Positions 18,470-42,974 are shown, counted from the first letter of the stretch. The stretch: 42,974 bases of DNA from Candidatus Woesearchaeota archaeon (GCA_030154045.1 JASKKU010000004.1:1-42974), one strand, 5' to 3'. The notes: generated by a model from the sequence alone, not told the origin. Program-made: numbers and translations.

Positions 18470-18756
18470 AAACCAGAATAAAAGAATACAGGGCGAAGTA
18501 TGATTTAACTCAGGAGGATTTGGCTAAAATCGTAGGGGTTAGAAGAGAAACTATTGTTTTTCTAGAGAAGGGCCGCTATAATCCATCTCTTATGTTAGCA
18601 TACAAAATTGCTAAGGCATTAAATGCAAGAATTGAGGATTTGTTCATGTTTGAAGATGAGTTACAAAATGCTGTCGGAGATAGTAAAAAATATAAACCTA
18701 CATACTCAGATAATAACAAAAAAAACGCTGGGCTAAATGAATTTTTCAAGTATTAA
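18466..18756 (+). CDS. Xre-family helix-turn-helix transcriptional regulator
   Basis: [38 protein letters not shown]. Confidence 0.93.
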
Positions 18757-21700
18757 AGAGAGGATAGAGTATCTCAATAGAAAGATTGAAGAGTGCGAAG
18801 AACAAAAATCTAAAATTGACGCCTTAGCAAACAAGTTCTTATCAGAGCAGATTAAGAAAAAAGATTTTTCTTATGAAACTTATGAAAAAGAGCTCAAAAA
18901 GTTGCTTAAGGGTAAAACAAGAGCCGAATGGTTTGCATATCTAAATTCTAAAATCAAAGCTTATAAATCAGAGCTCAATAAATTAAAACAGGAGCAAAGA
19001 AAACTCTTGAGAAAAAGAACTGTGCTTGTTGTTTCCGTAAATTTATTGGTTTTTGCCTTTGTCATTCCTTTTTTATTGACCAATTATTCAAACTTTAACT
19101 TAACAGGCTTCCTAGTAGCAGAGCCTGCTCTTGTTGGTCAAAATTCGAGTACTAATCTTACTAACATATCGCCCCAGATAGAGGCTACAATTAATCAAAC
19201 ACAGCCAGCAAATGAATCTTTAGCTGAGGAACCTCAAACCAAAACAAAGGAAAGTCCTAAACCTATAACAAGCTCTTCCACTAGCGGGAGTAAATCTTCC
19301 TCTAGCTCAGAAATAACATCTATCTTGCAAGAAAGCAATGAAACTCAGACGAACCAAACTCAGACTAATGAAACAATCGCTGAACCAGCAAACAAATCAA
19401 TCAATTTAGAGAACAATTCTGCTGTTAATAACGAAAGCTTTCTTAATCAAAGTAATCAAACTCAATCGGTTATAAACATCACTAATCAAAGTTATGAAAA
19501 TATTTCCGATTTAACAAACATAAGTTCAAACGAATCCTTTAATCAATCAGAAATTATAGAAAATCAATCCGTGCTTGAAAACTTGAGCGAAACCGCAAAT
19601 AAGACCGCAAACCAAACAATAAACCTCACAAATCAAACAAATTTAACAAACGAAAGTTTAGAGAATGCAACTATTGAAAACCTGACAAACGCAAGCCTAG
19701 AAAACATCTCTTTGATAAATATAACAAATGAAACCATAATCCAAAATCAAACCAATATGACGAATCTTTCTAATGTTTCATTAATCGAGAATATAACTAA
19801 TATAACAAAAGGATCTATTATAAATCAATCGGTATTAAATGAGACAAATGTAAGCAAGTTAATAAATGAAACCTTGGGAAACGAAACTCAAATAAATAAA
19901 ACTGAGGTTAATGAAAGCAATACAACTTCAACAATAATTAACCAGACCTTATCATTTTTCTTTGAGAATCTAACTGTTGCAGTAAACTCTACAAAGGCAA
20001 TAAACTTAGAAGAGTATTTTAATTCCTCCAACTTAACTTATATTTTAATTAATTTTGATTCTATGAATGCTCAAATAATAGACGATGTTTTAGTAATCTC
20101 TCCAAAAACCGTCGGTTCTTTCAGGTTAAAAATAATTGCAAGTGCTGAGAATTACACCTTAGAATCTAATGTGTTTTATGTTGAATCTTTATTACCTAAC
20201 GAAACCAATCAATCCACTTTAAAAAATATAACTAACGAAACTTCTCAAGAGATTGGCAATATTAAAAATTTAACTTTGATAAAACCTCTGCCAGAAATTA
20301 CTTTGGTGTATCCTCAAAACGTAATCTTAAATTTGAGTCAGTATTTTAAGTCCTCTTCTGACATAATTTTTACCTTCATTTATGATACTTCAAAACTTAA
20401 TGTCAAAGAAAAACTTGGTGTAATAAACATCTCTTCAAAACTTAATGACAATTTTAACCTAACAATAAAAATTTGGGCATCTGATAATAATAACACCTTA
20501 CAGAACAACCTTAGTATTACTGTATTACAGAACCTTTCTTTATTAAATCAAATAATGAACCTTACAAATCAAAGCACTAATTTAACGAACGCAAGTTTAG
20601 AAAACCTAAGTGAGATAAACCTTAGTAAAGTTAATGAACCACCAAGACTGCTTTATAATCTAACCAATCTAACAGTTTCAAACACAACCTTAAAGATTAA
20701 ACTATCTAATCTATTTTATGACCCAGACTCTGACGAACTTTCGTTCCTTGCTATCTCTGATTATCCTCTAGTTTCTTTTATTGATTCAGACTATCTTTAT
20801 CTTTATGCAGAGCATAGCTTTAATGGCAGCAGAGAATTAAAACTCTTGGCTTCTGACGGAATAAATGTAACTATTGTGAGCTTTTTTGTTAATTATTCAG
20901 AGACATTTAACGTTTCCTTACCGGAGAATCTAACTAATGATATAAACCATTCAATTAATGTTTCCAATCAGACTTTATTAAACCTAACTTCAAAAGAACA
21001 ACAAGAAAGCTTGAAGTATTTCATAAACATTAACGGCCCTACTCGTTGGGTTAAGAGAGTAAGAGTTCAAAACTCTGAAGATGCTTGGACTTATAAGGTT
21101 GTTTCAGTTTTGATTCCAAGCGATGCAAAGAACATAACTGTGCTCTTTAACTCTCAGTTGTTGAAGTTTATTGATGAATTAGAGATGCCGAAAGTAAAGG
21201 TCTTATCGAGTGCTAATGATTTAACTACCTATATGCAACAAACTAATAACACTCAAGAAGAAAACCTTTCAAATAATTCAATTAATGAATCTTTGATTAA
21301 CTCAAGCACTTTACAAAATTCGTCTTCAAATTTAACCATTATTAATGGAACTAATTCAAGCGAAACAAACTCTTTAGAGAATAATAGTAATAATACATTA
21401 AACAATACATTACAAGAATCTGAAGACAATCTCTTATCAAATGTTGTGCAAACAATAACAGGATTCTTTGGTTTTGGTATCAATGAACAAATAAATGCAA
21501 CGAATGAAACTAATCTTGCCTCTACAAACAATGAAAGTAATGCTGTTTTGGGTTCAACCAATAATTTAGTTAACACCACTTCATTAAATGATTCGCAGAC
21601 CCAAATAGATGAAACTTTTTCAAAAGAAGCAGTTTATTCTTTGAAGGATTCAGAATTGGGTAAAGCCGTCTTAATCAAAGATTATTTTGATCCTAATAGC

Positions 21701-23080
21701 ATTAAAGAATATGAGATTCAATACTTTACTTTAGGAGTTCATCTTGAAAAAGTATTAGATTATAGAACCAACCTTACGCATTACCAAAAGTTTAAGTTGA
21801 CAAATTTGGATAATGCAACTTACCAAAATATTAGATTAACCTTTATTGAACAGCCTCTGGATCAGCTTACGGTACTCTCCAATTCTGAAATAAATTATAG
21901 TTATGTTGAATTAAGCAATGAAACAAAGATACTTGTTTTAGTAAAAGAACTCAAACCCTACGAGACAATTGACTTATCAATCTATGCAATGTTTGATACC
22001 TTCTCATATAAACTGTATTCCATAATAAACAATACTTGGAGGTTTGACCTTTCTACAGAGTTCAACGACACTTTCGAGCTTAATTTGTTGAATGGCTCTT
22101 TAACTTTGGATGATATTGTTTGTTTAGATACAAATGAATCCGTATTAAATTCAGGCCTAACTCAGTCAGTCACTACAACAGAAACAGATAATAGCATTAT
22201 TTCAGAACAGAACTCTTTGACAAATTCAACAATTTTGCAACAAGAAAATCAAACCGAAAACATCACACTAAATACTGCTAGTGCCTTTAATAATTCTCTT
22301 GAAAACACTTCATTAAATCAAACAACAAATCAAACAACTGTAAATACCAGCTTAAATACCTTTGATAATGAAACTAACATAAACGAAACAATGCAAAACC
22401 AAGAGGTTAAATCTAATTTAGATTCCTCTGGGAATTATGTTAAGTTTGACACAACTGTCTGCAAGAACTTTGCAGTATATTTATCAGGAGATGATATTAA
22501 GAATGCAGAGGTACAAGTTAGTTTCTTAAATTCAACAAAAGAGATACATTCAGTTGAATCTAAGACATTGTTCCCACAGATTTCATCAATAACCGGATTC
22601 TGTAATAATTGTGGAGAAGACAAATTGTTTAATGTTTCAGTAGGCTGTGTCAAAACAAATACTGCTGAAGGTGGTTGGGATTTTGCTCTTCAAATGGACT
22701 TTAATTTCTCAAGTAACAGACTTTTAGCTTATGAAGCTACCCTCTGCGTTGACACGATTTACTCAACTGATGCGCAGGATGTTTATGCAGTTTTCCTACC
22801 AACAAACTCAACAAACCTTACTGAATATGAGATCTATGCCTTAAACAACATCAAGTCCTTAGACGTGTTTTTAATGAACAAGCCATACTTAACTTTACAT
22901 ATCAATTCTAGCATAAATGAGTTTAGTAATCAGACCGTTTTCTGCGGTACAGGTTATAATATCCCTCTATCTAAAAACTTCAGGATTTTACTTTTGGGTC
23001 AAGATATGCAATATTCTGCTAGGCCATTCGCTTGCTTTATGACTAATTCAAAGAATACTTATTTGAAAATCAAATACTAA
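18737..23080 (+). CDS. 1447-aa membrane-anchored, Asn-rich surface glycoprotein with cadherin/Ig-like modules
   Basis: N-terminal charged coiled coil, TM near residue 100, dense N-x-S/T tracts, NEPP...[11 protein letters not shown] motif, Cys-containing C-terminal domain. Confidence 0.8.
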
Positions 23081-37327: not shown

Positions 37328-38893
37328 ATGATAAACTTATCAACTTTGATTTATCAATTGCCTGATGCACTTTTTGCAAATGTTTTTATCATCTTTCTAA
37401 TCTTTTTTTATGTTTATTTATTCTTAAATTACAAACTTTTCTCTGCGATTTTTAAGACTTTGAGAAGGAATAAACTGTTTTTGTTAATTTTTATAATGAT
37501 GTTTATTTTTTCTTTTATTAATGGTTGGCATTCTAAGTTATATTATGATGAACCTGAAAATGTAATTAATTCGTTAAAAATTTTTAGGCATCTTACTTTA
37601 ACTGATCCTATCCTTCCTAGGCCTTTAGGTTTCTCAACGCTATTATCTTTTTTCAACACAGATTCTTATTTTTACTCCCAGCTTCTTGGTAGAATCATCT
37701 CGTTTCTTTCGACTTTTTTTTCCGCAGTGTTGCTATTTATGATTTTTAGAAAGTTTAACGTTGACAAAAAGTTAAGTTATCTTTTTGTGTTCTTGTTTTC
37801 TATTGCTCCATATAATCTTTTTTATCTTACTTTAAATAAACCTGAATCTTTGGCAGTGTTTTTCCTGTTGTTTTTTATTTATCTTTTTCAAGTTTATGTT
37901 TTTGATAAAAGAAAAGATTTGCTTTGGTTTTTATACTTTTTATCCTTGGTTTTGCCTTTAACTCGTTATGAATTGATTGTTGTAAGTTTCTCTTTTTTCT
38001 TGTTTATACTTTTTAAGTTTAAGAGGAAGATTTTCTATTGGTTTCCCTATCTCATAATTATGTTTTTTATCTTTTTAGGCTCGGTAATAATCTTTTCAGG
38101 AGTGAATTCAATTTTTAAAGGTCCTAAAATTATTCGATTTGATTTATTGAACTTTTTACATTCTTTTGTTATTAAAATGTTTAGAACTCCTTGGTTTGTC
38201 TTTTTTATATTGTTTTTTATTTTTATTTTTTATTCTTTGAAAAAGTCCAAAGGCAAAACACAAAAATATTTCTATCTCTTCATTTTTGTATCATTCATTT
38301 TACTTAGTTTAATTTATTCTGCTTACGATTTTAGTTATGAGCAAAGATATCAGAAATTATTGTACCCTTTTTTATTTATAGGCCTGTCTGTTATTAGAAT
38401 AAAAAATCCAAATTTAAATTCCAAGGTTTTATATTCCCTAATTTTTGTTTTTGGAATACTTTTTATGATCTTTTCGCTAAATGCTTATTCCTCGATTAAA
38501 GATATCAATTTAAAAAATGTTTTTACCGATAGTGCCCTTATTGACATCCAAAAAAATAGGTCTTGTTTTAGTAACGCAATTTTATATTGTCCAGTGTATT
38601 TTCCTAAGGCTCTAATTGAAGATTTGAATTTTATAAAAGTCTATTCGGCAATAAGTAGTTACCAGGAACTTGAGAGTAAGTACAATGAAAAGTACCAGAA
38701 TTTAACATATCTCTATTTAATAGAATATTTTACAGATGCAATTCCAGGTCTTATTCCAAAAGAGGTTCTTTCTCTAAGAGGTTCTAAAGAAAACTATGAT
38801 AAGCTGACTAAATTTTGCCCGGGGTTAAGTGATGAAACAAAGTCTTTTCTTATTTATTTAGATAAACCATTATCACAATACTTTAAGAAATAA
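37328..38893 (+). CDS. Polytopic membrane protein, GT-C (PMT/ArnT-like) glycosyltransferase fold
   Basis: About 12 TM segments, YYDEP acidic motif in an early loop, PES, TRYE, QRY; soluble C-terminal domain. Confidence 0.7.
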   Translation: MINLSTLIYQLPDALFANVFIIFLIFFYVYLFLNYKLFSAIFKTLRRNKLFLLIFIMMFIFSFINGWHSKLYYDEPENVINSLKIFRHLTLTDPILPRPLGFSTLLSFFNTDSYFYSQLLGRIISFLSTFFSAVLLFMIFRKFNVDKKLSYLFVFLFSIAPYNLFYLTLNKPESLAVFFLLFFIYLFQVYVFDKRKDLLWFLYFLSLVLPLTRYELIVVSFSFFLFILFKFKRKIFYWFPYLIIMFFIFLGSVIIFSGVNSIFKGPKIIRFDLLNFLHSFVIKMFRTPWFVFFILFFIFIFYSLKKSKGKTQKYFYLFIFVSFILLSLIYSAYDFSYEQRYQKLLYPFLFIGLSVIRIKNPNLNSKVLYSLIFVFGILFMIFSLNAYSSIKDINLKNVFTDSALIDIQKNRSCFSNAILYCPVYFPKALIEDLNFIKVYSAISSYQELESKYNEKYQNLTYLYLIEYFTDAIPGLIPKEVLSLRGSKENYDKLTKFCPGLSDETKSFLIYLDKPLSQYFKK

Positions 38894-38896
38894 AAA

Positions 38897-40222
38897 TTAC
38901 TTTCTAGATTTTTTTAGTAAAAGGTATCTTGAAAATAGCTTAAAAATACGAAACAAAACAAAAGGGTTTGAATAAAAAATCAGCGTTGCTAACTTCTTTC
39001 TGAACTTATCTTTTTTAGAACCAAAATCTTCAAAATTAACCTTTTTGAAGTCGATATTTTTCTTTTTCACTTTTTCATATAAAGCTGAGCCGGGGAAAGG
39101 TGATACTGTATAAAAGTTGGCGAAGGTTAAGCCTAACTTAGATGCAGTTAATGCGTCCTTTATAGGATCAGAGCCATAGCCAATTAAGAAATGACCAAAA
39201 ATTGGAATCCTATGTTTATTTGCTAATTCTATCTTCTGGATTATTACTTTACTCTTTTCTTTTTTATTCATTTTCTTTAACGCGGAATCGCTAAAACTTT
39301 CAATGCCAAACCCTATGAAGAAGACTCCTGCTTCTGAAAACAGTTTTGCTTGCTCTTCAGTTAACAAGTCTGACCTGGAATTACACACAAAAGTAATATT
39401 TAAAGGTTTAATTGCTTGAAGTAAACTGACTAAAAAATCGTTATCATCATTAAATGTCTCGTCAAAGAAGTAAAAGAAGTTAATACCTTTCTTTTTTAGG
39501 AACTTTATCTCATCAACTACATCAGCAACATTCCTTTTCCTAACTTTATGTCCGAAATAAAAAGGCACTACGCAAAAGTCGCAGTTGAATGGACAACCTC
39601 TGCCTGTTTGAATTAAAGCATAAGGTTCATTAATTATAGGAATCTTGTATCTTTTTACCTTTACTAGGTGCCAAGAAGGCATTTTGATTTTTTTTAAGTC
39701 TAGACGATTTGGCTCGTTGTTTGCCTTTATTTCTCCTTTCTCTCTATAAGCTAGTCCTTTGATTTTAGTAAATTTTATTCCTGAGCATAATTCTAAAGCA
39801 GGCATTTCTGGTTCATAAAGCAGAATATAATCAATAAAAGGCTGTTTGTTAAGAATCTCTTTATAAAAATAAGTTGAATGAACCGACGTTAATGCTATTT
39901 TTGCATTAGTTTTTGATTTAATCTCTTTTAAAAATTCTAAATCCGATTCAATAGTTGGCGTCGATGTTGTAGAGATTATTAATTCAGGTTTGAACTGTTT
40001 TAATACTTTTGAAAAATCTTTTCTCTTTTCTACATTGAAATCAAAAATTTTTACTCGAATGCCATTCTTTTCAAGTAAAGTTGCAGTATATAGCAAAGTT
40101 AAAGGATGAAAAACTGTATGAATCTTAGATGCTTTATGTTGGCATCTAGTTTCTCTTATGAACCTAGAACTAAAAGGTGGATTAATTAATAGAACTTTAT
40201 TGAAGCGGTTATTTGTTTTCAT
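38897..40222 (-). CDS. Cobalamin-binding radical SAM protein (class B methylase/BchE/HpnJ-like)
   Basis: LLINPP...PLTLLY B12-domain start; GRGCPFNCDFC; DETF; GIES; PFPGSALY. Confidence 0.9.
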   Translation of the reverse strand: MKTNNRFNKVLLINPPFSSRFIRETRCQHKASKIHTVFHPLTLLYTATLLEKNGIRVKIFDFNVEKRKDFSKVLKQFKPELIISTTSTPTIESDLEFLKEIKSKTNAKIALTSVHSTYFYKEILNKQPFIDYILLYEPEMPALELCSGIKFTKIKGLAYREKGEIKANNEPNRLDLKKIKMPSWHLVKVKRYKIPIINEPYALIQTGRGCPFNCDFCVVPFYFGHKVRKRNVADVVDEIKFLKKKGINFFYFFDETFNDDNDFLVSLLQAIKPLNITFVCNSRSDLLTEEQAKLFSEAGVFFIGFGIESFSDSALKKMNKKEKSKVIIQKIELANKHRIPIFGHFLIGYGSDPIKDALTASKLGLTFANFYTVSPFPGSALYEKVKKKNIDFKKVNFEDFGSKKDKFRKKLATLIFYSNPFVLFRIFKLFSRYLLLKKSRK

Positions 40223-40233
40223 TTTTAGCCATT

Positions 40234-40380
40234 TTATTTTTTAATAAAAGCACCTATTATTAAAACAACTCCTATTAAAGCGAATACAAATGTAGAATGA
40301 AAAACAATCCAACGGAAGATTAGCCAGGAACCCAAACTAACTAAAAACATTTTTCCAGCATTAAGTTTTTTTGTTTTCAT
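40234..40380 (-). CDS. 48-aa hydrophobic membrane peptide (not in ORF track)
   Basis: Hand translation MKTKKLNAGKMFLVSLGSWLIFRWIVFHSTFVFALIGVVLIIGAFIKK; GAGGT SD; fills the gap between peptidase and radical SAM genes. Confidence 0.7.
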   Translation of the reverse strand: MKTKKLNAGKMFLVSLGSWLIFRWIVFHSTFVFALIGVVLIIGAFIKK

Positions 40381-40389
40381 TTTTTAACC

Positions 40390-41535
40390 TCAAATTTTAA
40401 GCAGGCCTATTTTCCACAATATAGTCTTAATAAATATTCCTAATAGTATAAAACCATCGCCTTTGCAGATTATTGCTATTACAAATCCTAAAACAATGTA
40501 TGGTGCAAAAGGCATAGTTTTAAATACTGGGACTTCGGTAGTTCCTTTTTCTTTAAATATCTTTTTTATAACTTCAATATTCTCGCTTTCTAAACCAATT
40601 GATTGGTCATAATTGCCGATGATTTCATACTCCTCAAATCCTAAAGCCGTGCTGAGATAATTAAACAAAGAAAAGAAATTTATTCTTTTGAGATTGATTT
40701 TACCGTTTTCTTTTACAGGAACCATCGCTAAGTAATCTCCAATCTTTAATTCGTCTACTTTTTTGTAAGCAATATTTTTATTAAATATTCCTTCTAGAAT
40801 GATCATTCTTAGAAGTATATAAACTACAAAAACTTTGAGCATCTTAAACATTTCTTGTAAGCTTAGGTAATTTGGGAAGTCTAAAAAAAGTCTTAAGAAA
40901 AAAAGTAGAAAAATTAAGACTTTAAACTTAAGTTTGAAAACAACCCTGAAAAAACCTATGATGAATGTTAATATTATTGCAGTTAAAATAATATTTCCGT
41001 TGATTCTAAGAAGACTCATAATCCATTGAAGTATCCAAAGCAATCCGAAAACTCCAATTAAAGAAAAGCTTATACTTTTGGGATTTAATATCTTTTTAAT
41101 TTGATTTAAGTCTTTTTTGTCTAATTTGGTTATGTTTGGAATTATAATTGCAATAGAAATCAAAACTAAAATGTTTGAAAGCAGGCTTAACATCTCAGAA
41201 TTATTTGTAACTACTAAGAATCTGCCTGGAATTACGAAAGATAAAACACCAAAAAGTTTTCCGTCAGCAGGCGCCCAAAGTCCCATTATCCAAAACAAGA
41301 AACCTATTGAAATCCCAAGTATTCCTCTTAGAACATGTTTTGGCAATAGAAAAATCTTTCCATAATTCATAAAAAAAATCACATCTTGGATACAAATGAT
41401 GATTAATGAAAAGATTAATAACAATAACAAGTCTTTATTATATATTTTATTTCTTTTAAAATCGGTGTATGAAATTCGAGCCCCAAAAATTAAAATGAGA
41501 ATTACAAGCATCCAATCAAGTAAAGTTATAATCAT
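40390..41535 (-). CDS. A24 family prepilin peptidase, long EppA-like form
   Basis: SYTDFKRNKIYN (Asp1), GLWAPADGKL (Asp2), extra TM segments, KVDELKIGD, MPFAPYI. Confidence 0.85.
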   Translation of the reverse strand: MIITLLDWMLVILILIFGARISYTDFKRNKIYNKDLLLLLIFSLIIICIQDVIFFMNYGKIFLLPKHVLRGILGISIGFLFWIMGLWAPADGKLFGVLSFVIPGRFLVVTNNSEMLSLLSNILVLISIAIIIPNITKLDKKDLNQIKKILNPKSISFSLIGVFGLLWILQWIMSLLRINGNIILTAIILTFIIGFFRVVFKLKFKVLIFLLFFLRLFLDFPNYLSLQEMFKMLKVFVVYILLRMIILEGIFNKNIAYKKVDELKIGDYLAMVPVKENGKINLKRINFFSLFNYLSTALGFEEYEIIGNYDQSIGLESENIEVIKKIFKEKGTTEVPVFKTMPFAPYIVLGFVIAIICKGDGFILLGIFIKTILWKIGLLKI

Positions 41536-42029
41536 TTTTCGTTCTTAGAGCCACTATTTGAATTGAAACATAAAATATTTGCTTTTTGGTCAAGCCTTGC
41601 AATATCAAAAGGAACTTTAAATATAAGAATTGTAGCGTTATTTTCCTTTTTAACTAAGTAAGGCTTATCTATTGAATATAACCGATATATAGCTGTAGTT
41701 TTATAACGAACAAACCGTTCTAAAAAGAAGTTTTTACAGGAACAATTTACTTTTAAACTTAAAAAGATTTGTTTTTCAATGTTCTCTTGACTTATCTCCT
41801 TGAAATCAGTGCATATAGAAACCTTTTTATTATTAATCGTAATTATGTCTGATAAGTTCTCATTGTTAATGTTATCCTCCAAAAGATTTCTTGGCAGGGT
41901 ATCGTTTATTACTTTATCAGTGATTTTTAAATTAAGATGTATTGGAAAAAAGAGATTCTGGATTATTGAAACCGAAATAAAGAATAAAATGATTGCGCTA
42001 ATTATTTTTAAATGTGTTTTTATTTTCAT
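41532..42029 (-). CDS. Membrane-anchored or secreted hypothetical protein
   Basis: N-terminal hydrophobic helix, four Cys; ATGA overlap with the peptidase gene. Confidence 0.65.
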   Translation of the reverse strand: MKIKTHLKIISAIILFFISVSIIQNLFFPIHLNLKITDKVINDTLPRNLLEDNINNENLSDIITINNKKVSICTDFKEISQENIEKQIFLSLKVNCSCKNFFLERFVRYKTTAIYRLYSIDKPYLVKKENNATILIFKVPFDIARLDQKANILCFNSNSGSKNEK

Positions 42030-42159
42030 TGTTGTTATTTTTTAAATTGGGTATTAATTTAAAAGGATTCCCTTTTTAATTTCTCTCTTTGTATTTTTAT
42101 CTTTTTTTATAAATAAAGCAAATTTTAAAAAAGAGTTTATTCTTTAAATTGACTGAGTC

Positions 42160-42974
42160 ATGCTTATTAAGTCTTTTAAAGCATTGAGGAATTCGTATTT
42201 GTTAGTTCTGGCTTTAATTCTAATTGTTATTCCTTTCGTTTTCTCAGCTACTCTTTATGTTGAAATACACGAACCTGTTTTTGACGGTACTGTCGCATCA
42301 GCTTCCACAACAATTGTTAATGACCCTGAAGCTAATTGTCCTGGCACTCCTGGAACAACTGTTAGTACTAGTTGTACAGACTTTACATACGGTTCTTCAT
42401 GCTGCGTTAGTGAAGGCAATTATATTGCTTATGCATACTCTGATGAAGGAGAGAGTGCAGGCAATAGTGGGATTTTTGTAGAATACACTGTTAATTGGGA
42501 TAATAGTGAAACATATTGTACCTGTAAAGTAGGTTCAGGCCATTGGAATTTAGGTGGTGAAGTTGCTGCAAGTAGTTGTTGTGGCGATGACTCTGGAGAA
42601 TATGTTCGAAATTGTGTAGACAGTACTGATCAAGGCAGTTGTGGTGCTGATACTACAGCATGCTGTAATTCCAATACTGACTGCGTGGATAATTATGGCT
42701 TGTGCGAAAGTAGTGGTGCGTGTTATGGTACACCTATTATGGGAAATAGCTATTGTAATTCAGGTACTTGGGAAAACCCTGACGAAAGTTCAAGTTATTG
42801 CGTTTCTAGTTGTGATTTAACTAGCGGTGATCAGGGCATAGGTTGGAACTTAGGTGGTGAGATTGCAGCAACTAATTGTTGCGGCGATGATCCTAGCGAG
42901 TATTATCGAGTTTGTTCTGACAGTAGTGCTAACGGTGCTTGTGGTAGTGATACTACTGCTTGCTGTAATTCTAA
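42160..42974 (+). CDS. Secreted Cys-rich repeat protein, 3'-truncated by the window edge (not in ORF track)
   Basis: Open from ATG 42160 to the end: MLIKSFKALRNSYLLVLALILIVIPFVFSA...WNLGGEVAASSCCGDDSGEY...TTACCNS...WNLGGEIAATNCCGDDPSEY...TTACCNS. Confidence 0.88.
   Translation, partial: MLIKSFKALRNSYLLVLALILIVIPFVFSATLYVEIHEPVFDGTVASASTTIVNDPEANCPGTPGTTVSTSCTDFTYGSSCCVSEGNYIAYAYSDEGESAGNSGIFVEYTVNWDNSETYCTCKVGSGHWNLGGEVAASSCCGDDSGEYVRNCVDSTDQGSCGADTTACCNSNTDCVDNYGLCESSGACYGTPIMGNSYCNSGTWENPDESSSYCVSSCDLTSGDQGIGWNLGGEIAATNCCGDDPSEYYRVCSDSSANGACGSDTTACCNS
42544..42974 (+). repeat. 300-nt (100-aa) period coding repeat
   Basis: tggaatttaggtggtga at 42544 and tggaacttaggtggtga at 42844; Cys positions conserved. 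Confidence 0.85.

Follow-up and report, generated by a model that had tools for sequence, protein, structure and literature searches.

The bacterial HXS system is an antiphage system with the genes HxsD-HxsB-HxsC-HxsA, and these four genes, without a peptidase, constitute it in more than 99.8% of cases; its ability to keep phage DNA out of bacteria was demonstrated in 2026 (Li et al., Nat Commun 2026, PMC13128918, in the available part of the article). Bacterial HxsA undergoes a non-canonical N-terminal cleavage dependent on HxsB, HxsC and HxsD, for which no protease is named in that part of the article, and neither 'peptidase' nor 'archaea' is among its words (PMC13128918). Here we describe a six-gene locus at positions 37,328 to 42,974 of a 42,974-nucleotide stretch of DNA from a Candidatus Woesearchaeota archaeon (GCA_030154045.1 JASKKU010000004.1:1-42974), which as a whole is called the window below and is contig C4 of its genome. 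The locus encodes a putative A24-type aspartyl peptidase, a small membrane protein, a B12-binding radical S-adenosylmethionine (SAM) enzyme, a GT-C-like membrane protein and two further surface-type proteins. We propose that the peptidase is an enzyme of the Hxs clade detached from its gene cluster, and that the locus is not a self-contained pathway, with a rough probability of 0.7.

The genome of the window is like the bacterial system in having HxsB above the family cut-off, an HxsD-like gene, HxsC-like radical SAM genes and proteins of His-x-Ser/Thr repeats (the Hxs families in NCBIfam are TIGR03976-03979). Unlike bacteria, this archaeon and related DPANN archaea have a dedicated A24-type peptidase, a second HxsD-like gene and many HxsC paralogues. 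Bacterial HxsA has a Sec signal and a peptidoglycan-binding domain, whereas the HxsA3/A4-type precursors of these archaea have a long pilin-like leader and, after it, a hydrophobic helix. The peptidase gene of this genus stands apart from the cluster, and an antiphage role in archaea would be hypothetical. What we describe is the known Hxs system with a previously undescribed dedicated peptidase, here split from the cluster. No paper linking Hxs to a prepilin or A24 peptidase was found in the searchable literature, outside which lie subscription papers including the 2011 paper that defined the Hxs families.

The closest described peptidases are FlaK, PibD and EppA. Like them (3S0X is the FlaK structure), the window peptidase is polytopic and has two Asp motifs, one of the form D-x5-I-x-N and the other with x-K-L after the Asp; its soluble domain is of the Arc_PepC type, and it ends in a PFAP helix. 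Unlike them, its clade is patchy, as it was found in 19 of 61 relatives (single-protein search and profile at E 1e-10) while the housekeeping A24 type was found in 59, and the window member stays below the Pfam cut-offs and reads PAD instead of GxGD. No pilin, ATPase or platform genes adjoin it, and the conserved neighbours of its clade are radical SAM maturases.

The other two enzymes also have described counterparts. The radical SAM enzyme shares a B12-binding domain and the CxxxCxxC core with the class B enzymes HpnJ, BchE and AprD4 from glycan, lipid and antibiotic pathways, but it misses all equivalog cut-offs widely, and its family is greatly expanded in this archaeal order. The GT-C-like protein is polytopic, about 520 amino acids (aa) long and matched by the PMT_2 core as in PMT/ArnT-type enzymes, but it scores below the PMT_2 cut-off and its gene is placed right after L15 at the end of a ribosomal operon.

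A divergent A24 peptidase

The peptidase gene occupies 40390-41535 on the minus strand and encodes 381 aa, as identified from the open reading frame (ORF) and profile homology. When an alignment of 16 homologues was compared by hhalign with the clade of the genome's housekeeping A24 peptidase, the match had a probability of 99.0 and an E value of 3.5e-18 over 300 columns, with both Asp motifs in register. The catalytic residues D25 (S-Y-T-D ... I-x-N33) and D91 (followed by G-K-L-F) are present, and both columns are at least 90% conserved among the 16 homologues. Four of the 16 pass the Pfam cut-off for Peptidase_A24 (PF01478, 26.5 bits) and six pass that for Arc_PepC (PF06819, 23.4 bits), while NCBIfam gave no match for the 381-aa protein. 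The housekeeping enzyme, encoded at C1:42644-43807, scores 50.4 bits for Peptidase_A24, above the cut-off, and its best NCBIfam name is FlaK_Arch. Judged from these motifs and profiles, the 381-aa protein is a true but divergent peptidase of the FlaK/PibD type and an accessory paralogue of the housekeeping enzyme.

One relative, G019, holds four copies of the accessory peptidase without HxsB. The copy at L035:9005-10123 of this genome aligns with His at the second catalytic Asp, and its neighbours are genes for an M23-like protein, a TPR protein, and YcaO plus nitroreductase, with no Hxs genes.

Linkage of the peptidase clade to Hxs genes

Fifteen neighbourhoods of the accessory peptidase were fetched from relatives, and the 16-homologue alignment was used for the profile. 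In ten of them, the peptidase gene has on one side a Fer4_12/SPASM radical SAM gene (385-502 aa) together with one to three small ORFs. An eleventh (L027) has an adjoining HxsA3-like gene, contig ends truncate three more, and L035 is different. The neighbours carry the NCBIfam names HxsD, HxsD-like, HxsB, HxsA3/A4-like and HxsC4-like, and HxsB exceeds its 370-bit cut-off in eight of nine tested neighbours, the ninth reaching 359. The initial annotation, made from the window sequence, had placed the peptidase in radical-SAM protein maturation rather than in a pilus locus. This part holds, but the recurring partners are HxsB and HxsC, with HxsD and HxsA, and not the B12 enzyme that it had named.

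The linkage was then counted in a public scan of one genome per species, with an 8-sequence alignment as query, which gave 79 loci, 58 of them with a full-length homologue. Hxs genes were found in these loci with hidden Markov models (HMMs) built from the first neighbourhood set. An Hxs gene lies within 5 kb of the peptidase in 49 of the 58 full-length loci: HxsD in 47, HxsD-like in 42, HxsB in 40 and HxsA in 24. Among the nine loci without Hxs genes, four have less than 900 bp downstream, one has 55 bp upstream, one is from the same genus, and three have other neighbours.

The remaining 21 loci have shorter homologues and are mostly bacterial (Omnitrophota, Patescibacteria), with Hxs genes in five and an HxsC4-like radical SAM gene in ten. 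In five loci from Omnitrophota and other bacterial contigs (L087, L107, L111, L112, L121), shorter A24-like genes lie no more than about 5 kb from HxsB/HxsD, with HxsA in four. In ten Patescibacteria-type loci, the shorter A24-like gene adjoins that of the HxsC4-like radical SAM enzyme. Because bacterial loci show Hxs genes near shorter A24-like genes, the association crosses domains.

When HxsB was counted as present at E below 1e-90, the 61 relatives comprised 17 with both peptidase and HxsB, two with the peptidase only, three with HxsB only and 39 with neither, counted among relatives that are not independent and with a peptidase profile built from 16 of the matched genes. A DPANN clade of prepilin-type peptidases, co-inherited and mostly co-located with HxsB, HxsD and HxsA, is a concrete candidate for HxsA leader cleavage. 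That the peptidase is functionally part of the Hxs system we regard as quite probable.

Some neighbourhoods contain other genes of note. In two Woesearchaeota loci without Hxs genes (L129:4236-6984 and L074:8240-11303), a pair of paralogous proteins of 376-551 aa flanks the peptidase. A 488-aa exosortase/archaeosortase-like protein (Exosortase_EpsH, 55.6 bits) is encoded at L108:5448-6914, divergent from the accessory peptidase gene, and a 1323-aa protein with a Hint/intein-like domain at L028:6180-10151 (G022), on the upstream side of the peptidase gene and divergent from it. Large secreted proteins encoded upstream of the peptidase in 11 of the 58 loci were dropped as a signal, as they are too common in such genomes.

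The Hxs cluster on another contig

The Hxs cluster of the same genome is on contig C2 at about 42.4-62.5 kb (C2:42378-62520), occupying some 20 kb of the 805-kb genome. HxsB (C2:60163-61695) scores 414.9 bits for TIGR03978 with a cut-off of 370, and HxsD (C2:62520-61975) scores 48.0 with a cut-off of 50. The cluster encodes two HxsA proteins, one of A4 type with 209 aa (C2:42378-43007; 73.3 bits, cut-off 55) and one of A3 type with 144 aa (51.8, cut-off 65), and both are built of His-x-Ser/Thr units. An HxsD-like gene (HxsD_rel 32.3, cut-off 41) and seven HxsC-like radical SAM genes are also on this contig, one of the seven being HxsC4-like and one of the six others a tandem double enzyme. The best HxsC score of the C2 genes is 229.6 against a cut-off of 267.9, and the best HxsC4 score is 158.5 against 500. 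By these scores the HxsC and HxsD genes of C2 are classed as divergent relatives, not equivalogs. A gene for a Wzy-like membrane protein is also in the cluster, and an insert at C2:47.2-52.1 kb divides the Hxs stretch.

The same split of peptidase and Hxs cluster between contigs is found in G002, a relative of the same genus. The peptidase gene is the one Hxs-linked gene standing apart from the cluster in this genus, and a cluster-based annotation of the genome's large Hxs system would miss it.

The HxsA leader as a candidate substrate

Among 25 HxsA-like proteins, the leader has invariant P3, G18, K22 and G29, with a hydrophobic stretch after G29 and then the repeats. In sequence, such a leader ending in Gly resembles a long type IV prepilin leader. 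A complex of the window peptidase with HxsA residues 1-60 was modeled with a score of 0.64, a mark that 116 of 157 solved complexes attain, as do 2 of 215 mismatched pairs (counts that are only approximate, since own alignments were used), and the best of three controls scored 0.00. At least 78% of contacts are common to the runs, and the predicted local distance difference test value of the partner is at least 62. The interface involves D25, residues 79-93 around D91, and residues 338-344. The model thus places the HxsA leader at the catalytic aspartates, and it supports, without demonstrating, binding.

We infer that the accessory clade would supply the leader peptidase of the Hxs system, which may work as follows. 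HxsA precursors would carry the conserved leader of about 29 residues ending in an invariant Gly, followed by the hydrophobic helix. Cytoplasmic HxsB, HxsC and HxsD would modify the precursor, the peptidase would then cut off the leader on the cytoplasmic side of the membrane, and what remains of HxsA, with its many His residues, would stay anchored or be exported. The chance that the window peptidase cleaves HxsA itself seems to us somewhat better than even.

The B12 radical SAM enzyme and the GT-C-like protein

The radical SAM gene (38897-40222, minus strand, ORF and Pfam) encodes 441 aa with Radical_SAM (PF04055, 90.2 bits, cut-off 29.5) and B12-binding (PF02310, 44.8 bits, cut-off 32.1) domains, both over the cut-off, and its core motif CxxxCxxC reads C-P-F-N-C-D-F-C in translation. 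The best NCBIfam model was HpnJ (151.1 versus a cut-off of 577.6), with BchE at 147, and all 39 matches are far under their cut-offs. The best matches in the PDB were 9ccb_A (E 4.5e-24) and AprD4 (E 1.9e-14), the closest solved chains being 9ccb_A and 6fd2_B. The family is found in 38 of the 61 genomes, one of which has as many as 27 matches, and is single-copy in this genome. No close orthologue outside the genus was found among the 61 relatives, the best being 39% identical.

In a maximum-likelihood tree of 42 class B sequences, made as a quick search only and with several rows on long branches, the window enzyme groups with copies from G046, G060, G034, G061 and G062 (support 80-89). These copies lie in the context of UbiA genes (G061 and G062, on contigs other than those with Hxs) or of GT2, carbamoyltransferase and polysaccharide deacetylase genes (G046, G060, G034), and no peptidase gene is present in the loci of about 4 kb around the nearest relatives. 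The B12 enzymes that are encoded within Hxs clusters in G061 and G062 form a separate clade with a support of 100, and the G003 copies are elsewhere on long branches. The initial annotation had joined this enzyme to the peptidase in one pathway, and its place among paralogues of glycan and lipid context in this quick tree speaks against that, being the outcome that the annotation itself had named as a refutation.

A B12 radical SAM gene lies within 5 kb of the peptidase in 5 of the 58 full-length loci. At L036:14407-16557 (G045), inside an Hxs cluster, a 716-aa fusion joins an N-terminal B12-type radical SAM enzyme to a C-terminal HxsC4-like one. Longer ORFs with matches to both types in L095, L104, L108, L113 and L128 are candidate fusions.

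The GT-C-like gene (37328-38893, plus strand, ORF) encodes a polytopic protein of 521 aa, in which PMT_2 (PF13231) matches residues 119-250 with E 7e-5 and 23.5 bits, the cut-off being 26.1. Its orthologue in G002 is 49% identical and scores 20.1 for PMT_2. An acidic YDEPE word lies in the first predicted loop and may have the meaning that such a word has in the GT-C family. BLASTP gave weak similarity to PMT_2 proteins in L090 (E 3.6e-4) and L075 (E 0.001), in a database of only 10 sequences. No similarity was detectable to the 591-aa PMT_2-like protein of G003 (E 0.24), and none was found to a family of polytopic proteins of 573, 575 and 595 aa. A GT-C gene of the window type is near the peptidase in one of the 58 full-length loci, from the same genus, and a PMT_2-like gene is within about 7 kb of it in four. 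PMT_2 proteins above the cut-off adjoin A24-like or Hxs genes in L075, L090 and L132, in the last of these 16 nt after HxsB.

The two genes are best read as a pair that modifies and transfers a lipid-linked sugar. Whether the pair also acts on HxsA is a different matter; it is conceivable, with the odds leaning against it. The recurrence of B12 radical SAM and GT-C-like genes around Hxs clusters in the closest lineages hints at further tailoring.

Weighing of the alternatives

Several points weigh against an Hxs peptidase detached from its cluster. As for the enzyme itself, the 381-aa protein scores just under the Pfam cut-offs (22.6 for Peptidase_A24 and 21.5 for Arc_PepC), and a PDB sequence search with the 16-sequence profile gave no chain at E up to 1. 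In the window and in G002, Ala takes the place of the Gly that precedes the second Asp (A-P-A-D, hence PAD for GxGD); Ala or Ser is at the same place in L030, L031 and L033, and Gly in the rest of the 16 homologues. As for the linkage, the window peptidase on C4 is not adjacent to any Hxs gene, these being on C2, so the link rests on relatives, whose dependence on one another was mentioned above. Loci L074, L129 and L139 have ample flanks and no Hxs genes. HxsB occurs without such a peptidase in G032, G044 and G046, and the peptidase without HxsB in G019 and G022. As for the substrate, HxsA is without the charged residue that class III signals usually have at position -2, and the tightest modeled contacts are with leader residues 8-22 around G18, not G29; because of this, the model singles out neither G18 nor G29 as the cleavage site. 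The housekeeping A24 peptidase could remove the leader instead. Finally, the run of A24, pep48 (the small membrane protein) and B12 radical SAM genes is kept in G002 and could be a functional operon.

The initial annotation had supposed a dedicated pathway that cleaves, methylates and glycosylates a local substrate (pep48, the 165-aa protein p165 or the Cys-rich protein) independently of other systems. The tight same-strand run with its ATGA overlap and gaps of 9 and 11 nt would suit such a pathway, as would the conservation of the whole arrangement in G002 at 49-70% protein identity. Furthermore, pep48 starts with a short basic stretch ending in Gly, followed by a hydrophobic segment, and the small protein upstream of the peptidase has a canonical class III signal in three other loci. 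However, the gene set is together only within the genus (1 of 15 neighbourhoods; GT-C and p165 in 1 of 58 loci), pep48 has no relatives elsewhere, and gaps this small are ordinary in the genome. The conserved partners of the peptidase clade are Hxs genes, which here are on contig C2, and the nearest relatives of the radical SAM enzyme lack a peptidase, as described above. The self-contained pathway is improbable in our view. Alternatively, the enzyme could be a second prepilin peptidase for surface proteins of the p165 type, with its proximity to Hxs genes due to shared regulation or envelope location rather than to HxsA processing. Archaea with several dedicated A24 peptidases exist, for example with FlaK and EppA. 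EppA is mentioned in PMC4858521. Small anchored proteins are coupled to the peptidase gene in 10 loci, with a class III signal in L088, L102 and L117, and two type IV pilus-like ATPase/platform loci are present in the genome. The peptidase gene is near neither of them, though, and p165 lacks a Gly or Ala where the -1 residue could plausibly be and shows no detected homology to the class III examples. The phyletic pattern of the clade matches HxsB (17/2/3/39), while pilus genes and the housekeeping A24 peptidase are near-universal, and the complex model puts the HxsA leader at the predicted active site. This alternative also has little to recommend it, and a detached Hxs peptidase accounts for the gene patterns better in our estimation.

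A broader proposal agrees with the detached-peptidase reading on the peptidase, namely on HxsA leader cleavage, but assigns other roles to the B12 radical SAM and GT-C-like proteins. It takes the six genes as the detached membrane-side tailoring arm of an expanded Hxs system, in which the B12 enzyme would methylate HxsA or a sugar that is to be attached to it and the GT-C-like protein would O-glycosylate exported Ser/Thr-rich repeats. It draws on one contiguous cluster in G003, of a sister genus in the same family (peptidase 28% identical). There the order is Cys-rich protein, small anchored protein, A24-like peptidase, HxsD/D-like/B/C4, DUF362-ferredoxin, polytopic proteins and DegT, followed by a 448-aa radical SAM gene converging on a 591-aa PMT_2-like gene (E 0.0017), two B12 radical SAM genes and more HxsC-like genes. 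Without the Hxs core, this order matches the window in order and orientation (Cys-rich / p-A24 ... radical SAM converging on GT-C). Over its full length, the 448-aa enzyme shows 24% identity to the window enzyme (E 3e-16). In G061 and G062 (peptidase 34% identical), DUF362-ferredoxin, a 575/595-aa polytopic protein and one or more B12 radical SAM enzymes are encoded in one operon on one strand, with 12 to 24 nt between the polytopic and B12 genes, B12-binding scores of 67-70 bits and PMT_2 at E 4e-4 in G061. The G045 fusion of B12-type and HxsC4-like enzymes, the PMT_2 proteins above the cut-off beside A24-like/Hxs genes in L075, L090 and L132, and the single copy of the B12 enzyme in this genome point the same way. 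Thus the co-occurrence of these genes, first noticed in the window, is partly rescued by B12 radical SAM and PMT_2-like or polytopic proteins embedded in the one-piece Hxs clusters of G003, G061 and G062. The divergent position of the Cys-rich gene next to the peptidase is kept in G003, G062 and G045 as well. In the neighbourhood survey, the expected adjacency of B12 radical SAM and GT-C genes to the peptidase recurred only within the genus (1 of 15; GT-C 1 of 58).

On the other hand, the window radical SAM enzyme falls outside the Hxs-embedded clade in the quick tree and goes with copies of glycan context, with a modest support of 80-89. The window GT-C-like protein is unlike both the 591-aa protein of G003 and the 573/575/595-aa family. 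By a rough estimate with no computed control, PMT_2-like genes near the peptidase in 4 of 58 loci and B12 radical SAM genes in 5 of 58 are near chance for gene-rich families. A detached tailoring arm of six genes is accordingly rather unlikely. Its fullest form would be a His-rich, pilin-like surface polymer, serving as an antiviral barrier or attachment fibre of a host-dependent archaeon and made from HxsA that is cleaved by the peptidase, modified by radical SAM enzymes, methylated and O-glycosylated. We hold such a polymer to be quite doubtful; if it were true, the peptidase would also show which type of enzyme the published model of bacterial HXS lacks.

Gene layout and the small proteins

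The six genes, their spacings and orientations and the CCGDD repeats were confirmed as initially annotated, with the ORF coordinates, overlap and gaps reproduced. The p165 stop and the A24 start share an ATGA overlap, and the gaps are 9 nt between A24 and pep48, 11 nt between pep48 and the radical SAM gene, and 3 nt where the latter converges on the GT-C-like gene. A divergent spacer of 130 nt separates p165 from the Cys-rich gene. In a crude genome-wide ORF call, a gap of 11 nt or less occurs in 39% of 475 same-strand neighbour pairs, and one of 3 nt or less in 37% of 140 convergent pairs. The tight spacing at the locus is ordinary for a compact genome and no more than chance.

G002 repeats the whole arrangement of the window, and among the 15 fetched neighbourhoods A24, B12 radical SAM and GT-C genes are directly together in this one only. 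G001, also of the same genus, is without peptidase, radical SAM gene and HxsB, and is uninformative, its L15 gene standing at a contig start. Two metagenome scans for relatives of the locus found none, while relatives with 63% and 47% identity are known from a large protein search, which gave only five matches, none of them named.

pep48 (40234-40380, minus strand, ORF) has 48 aa with two hydrophobic segments, and a Shine-Dalgarno-like GAGGT word is 7 nt before its ATG. Its counterpart in G002 is 57% identical over 28 aa. Because of the GAGGT word and this conservation, pep48 is probably a real gene. It is genus-specific, with no relatives at E below 0.5 in the other fetched loci or elsewhere in the genome. 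A role of pep48 as a conserved partner of B12 radical SAM enzymes was discarded, as no similar small ORF is upstream of 23 paralogues.

p165 (41532-42029, minus strand, ORF) is a 165-aa protein anchored at its N-terminus, for which neither Pfam nor NCBIfam gave a match. Its G002 counterpart is 53% identical, and it was found in one of the 58 loci. The ten loci with small anchored proteins that are start/stop-coupled upstream of the peptidase are the window, L067 (same genus), L068-L071, L088, L100, L102 and L117. Homology of p165 to the other upstream small proteins was not found with HMM searches and hhalign, the best match having an E value of 0.0022 in a tiny database and a probability of 3%.

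The Cys-rich gene (42160-42972, plus strand, ORF) is open at the contig end, and its 5′ part encodes 271 residues of a predicted secreted protein with CCGDD twice. Pfam and NCBIfam gave no match to the protein, and an Atlas search gave no usable one. Relatives are encoded divergently upstream of the A24-like gene in G002, G003, G062 and G045 (L024/L067, L026/L071, L070 and L036, respectively). p165 and the Cys-rich gene keep the positions held at the left end of the one-piece clusters in G003 and G062. Similar repeats, 40-46% identical, are encoded in the first 370 bases of contig C28 (C28:23-367), so the break in the Cys-rich gene is probably a repeat-collapse gap.

The genome, that of a tiny archaeon of symbiotic type, consists of 29 contigs, is 95% complete and has about 33% G+C, and its closest public relatives carry the labels Woesearchaeota or Nanoarchaeota. 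No pilus assembly genes are beside the peptidase, as had been noted initially, and T2SSE and T2SSF have no match anywhere on contig C4. The locus comes after an archaeal operon of ribosomal protein genes, the last of them L15, and the GT-C-like gene is directly next to L15 (36747-38893), where secY and adk usually come in archaea. Upstream of the ribosomal block, the window contains an ORF of 1447 aa at 18737-23080 on the plus strand.

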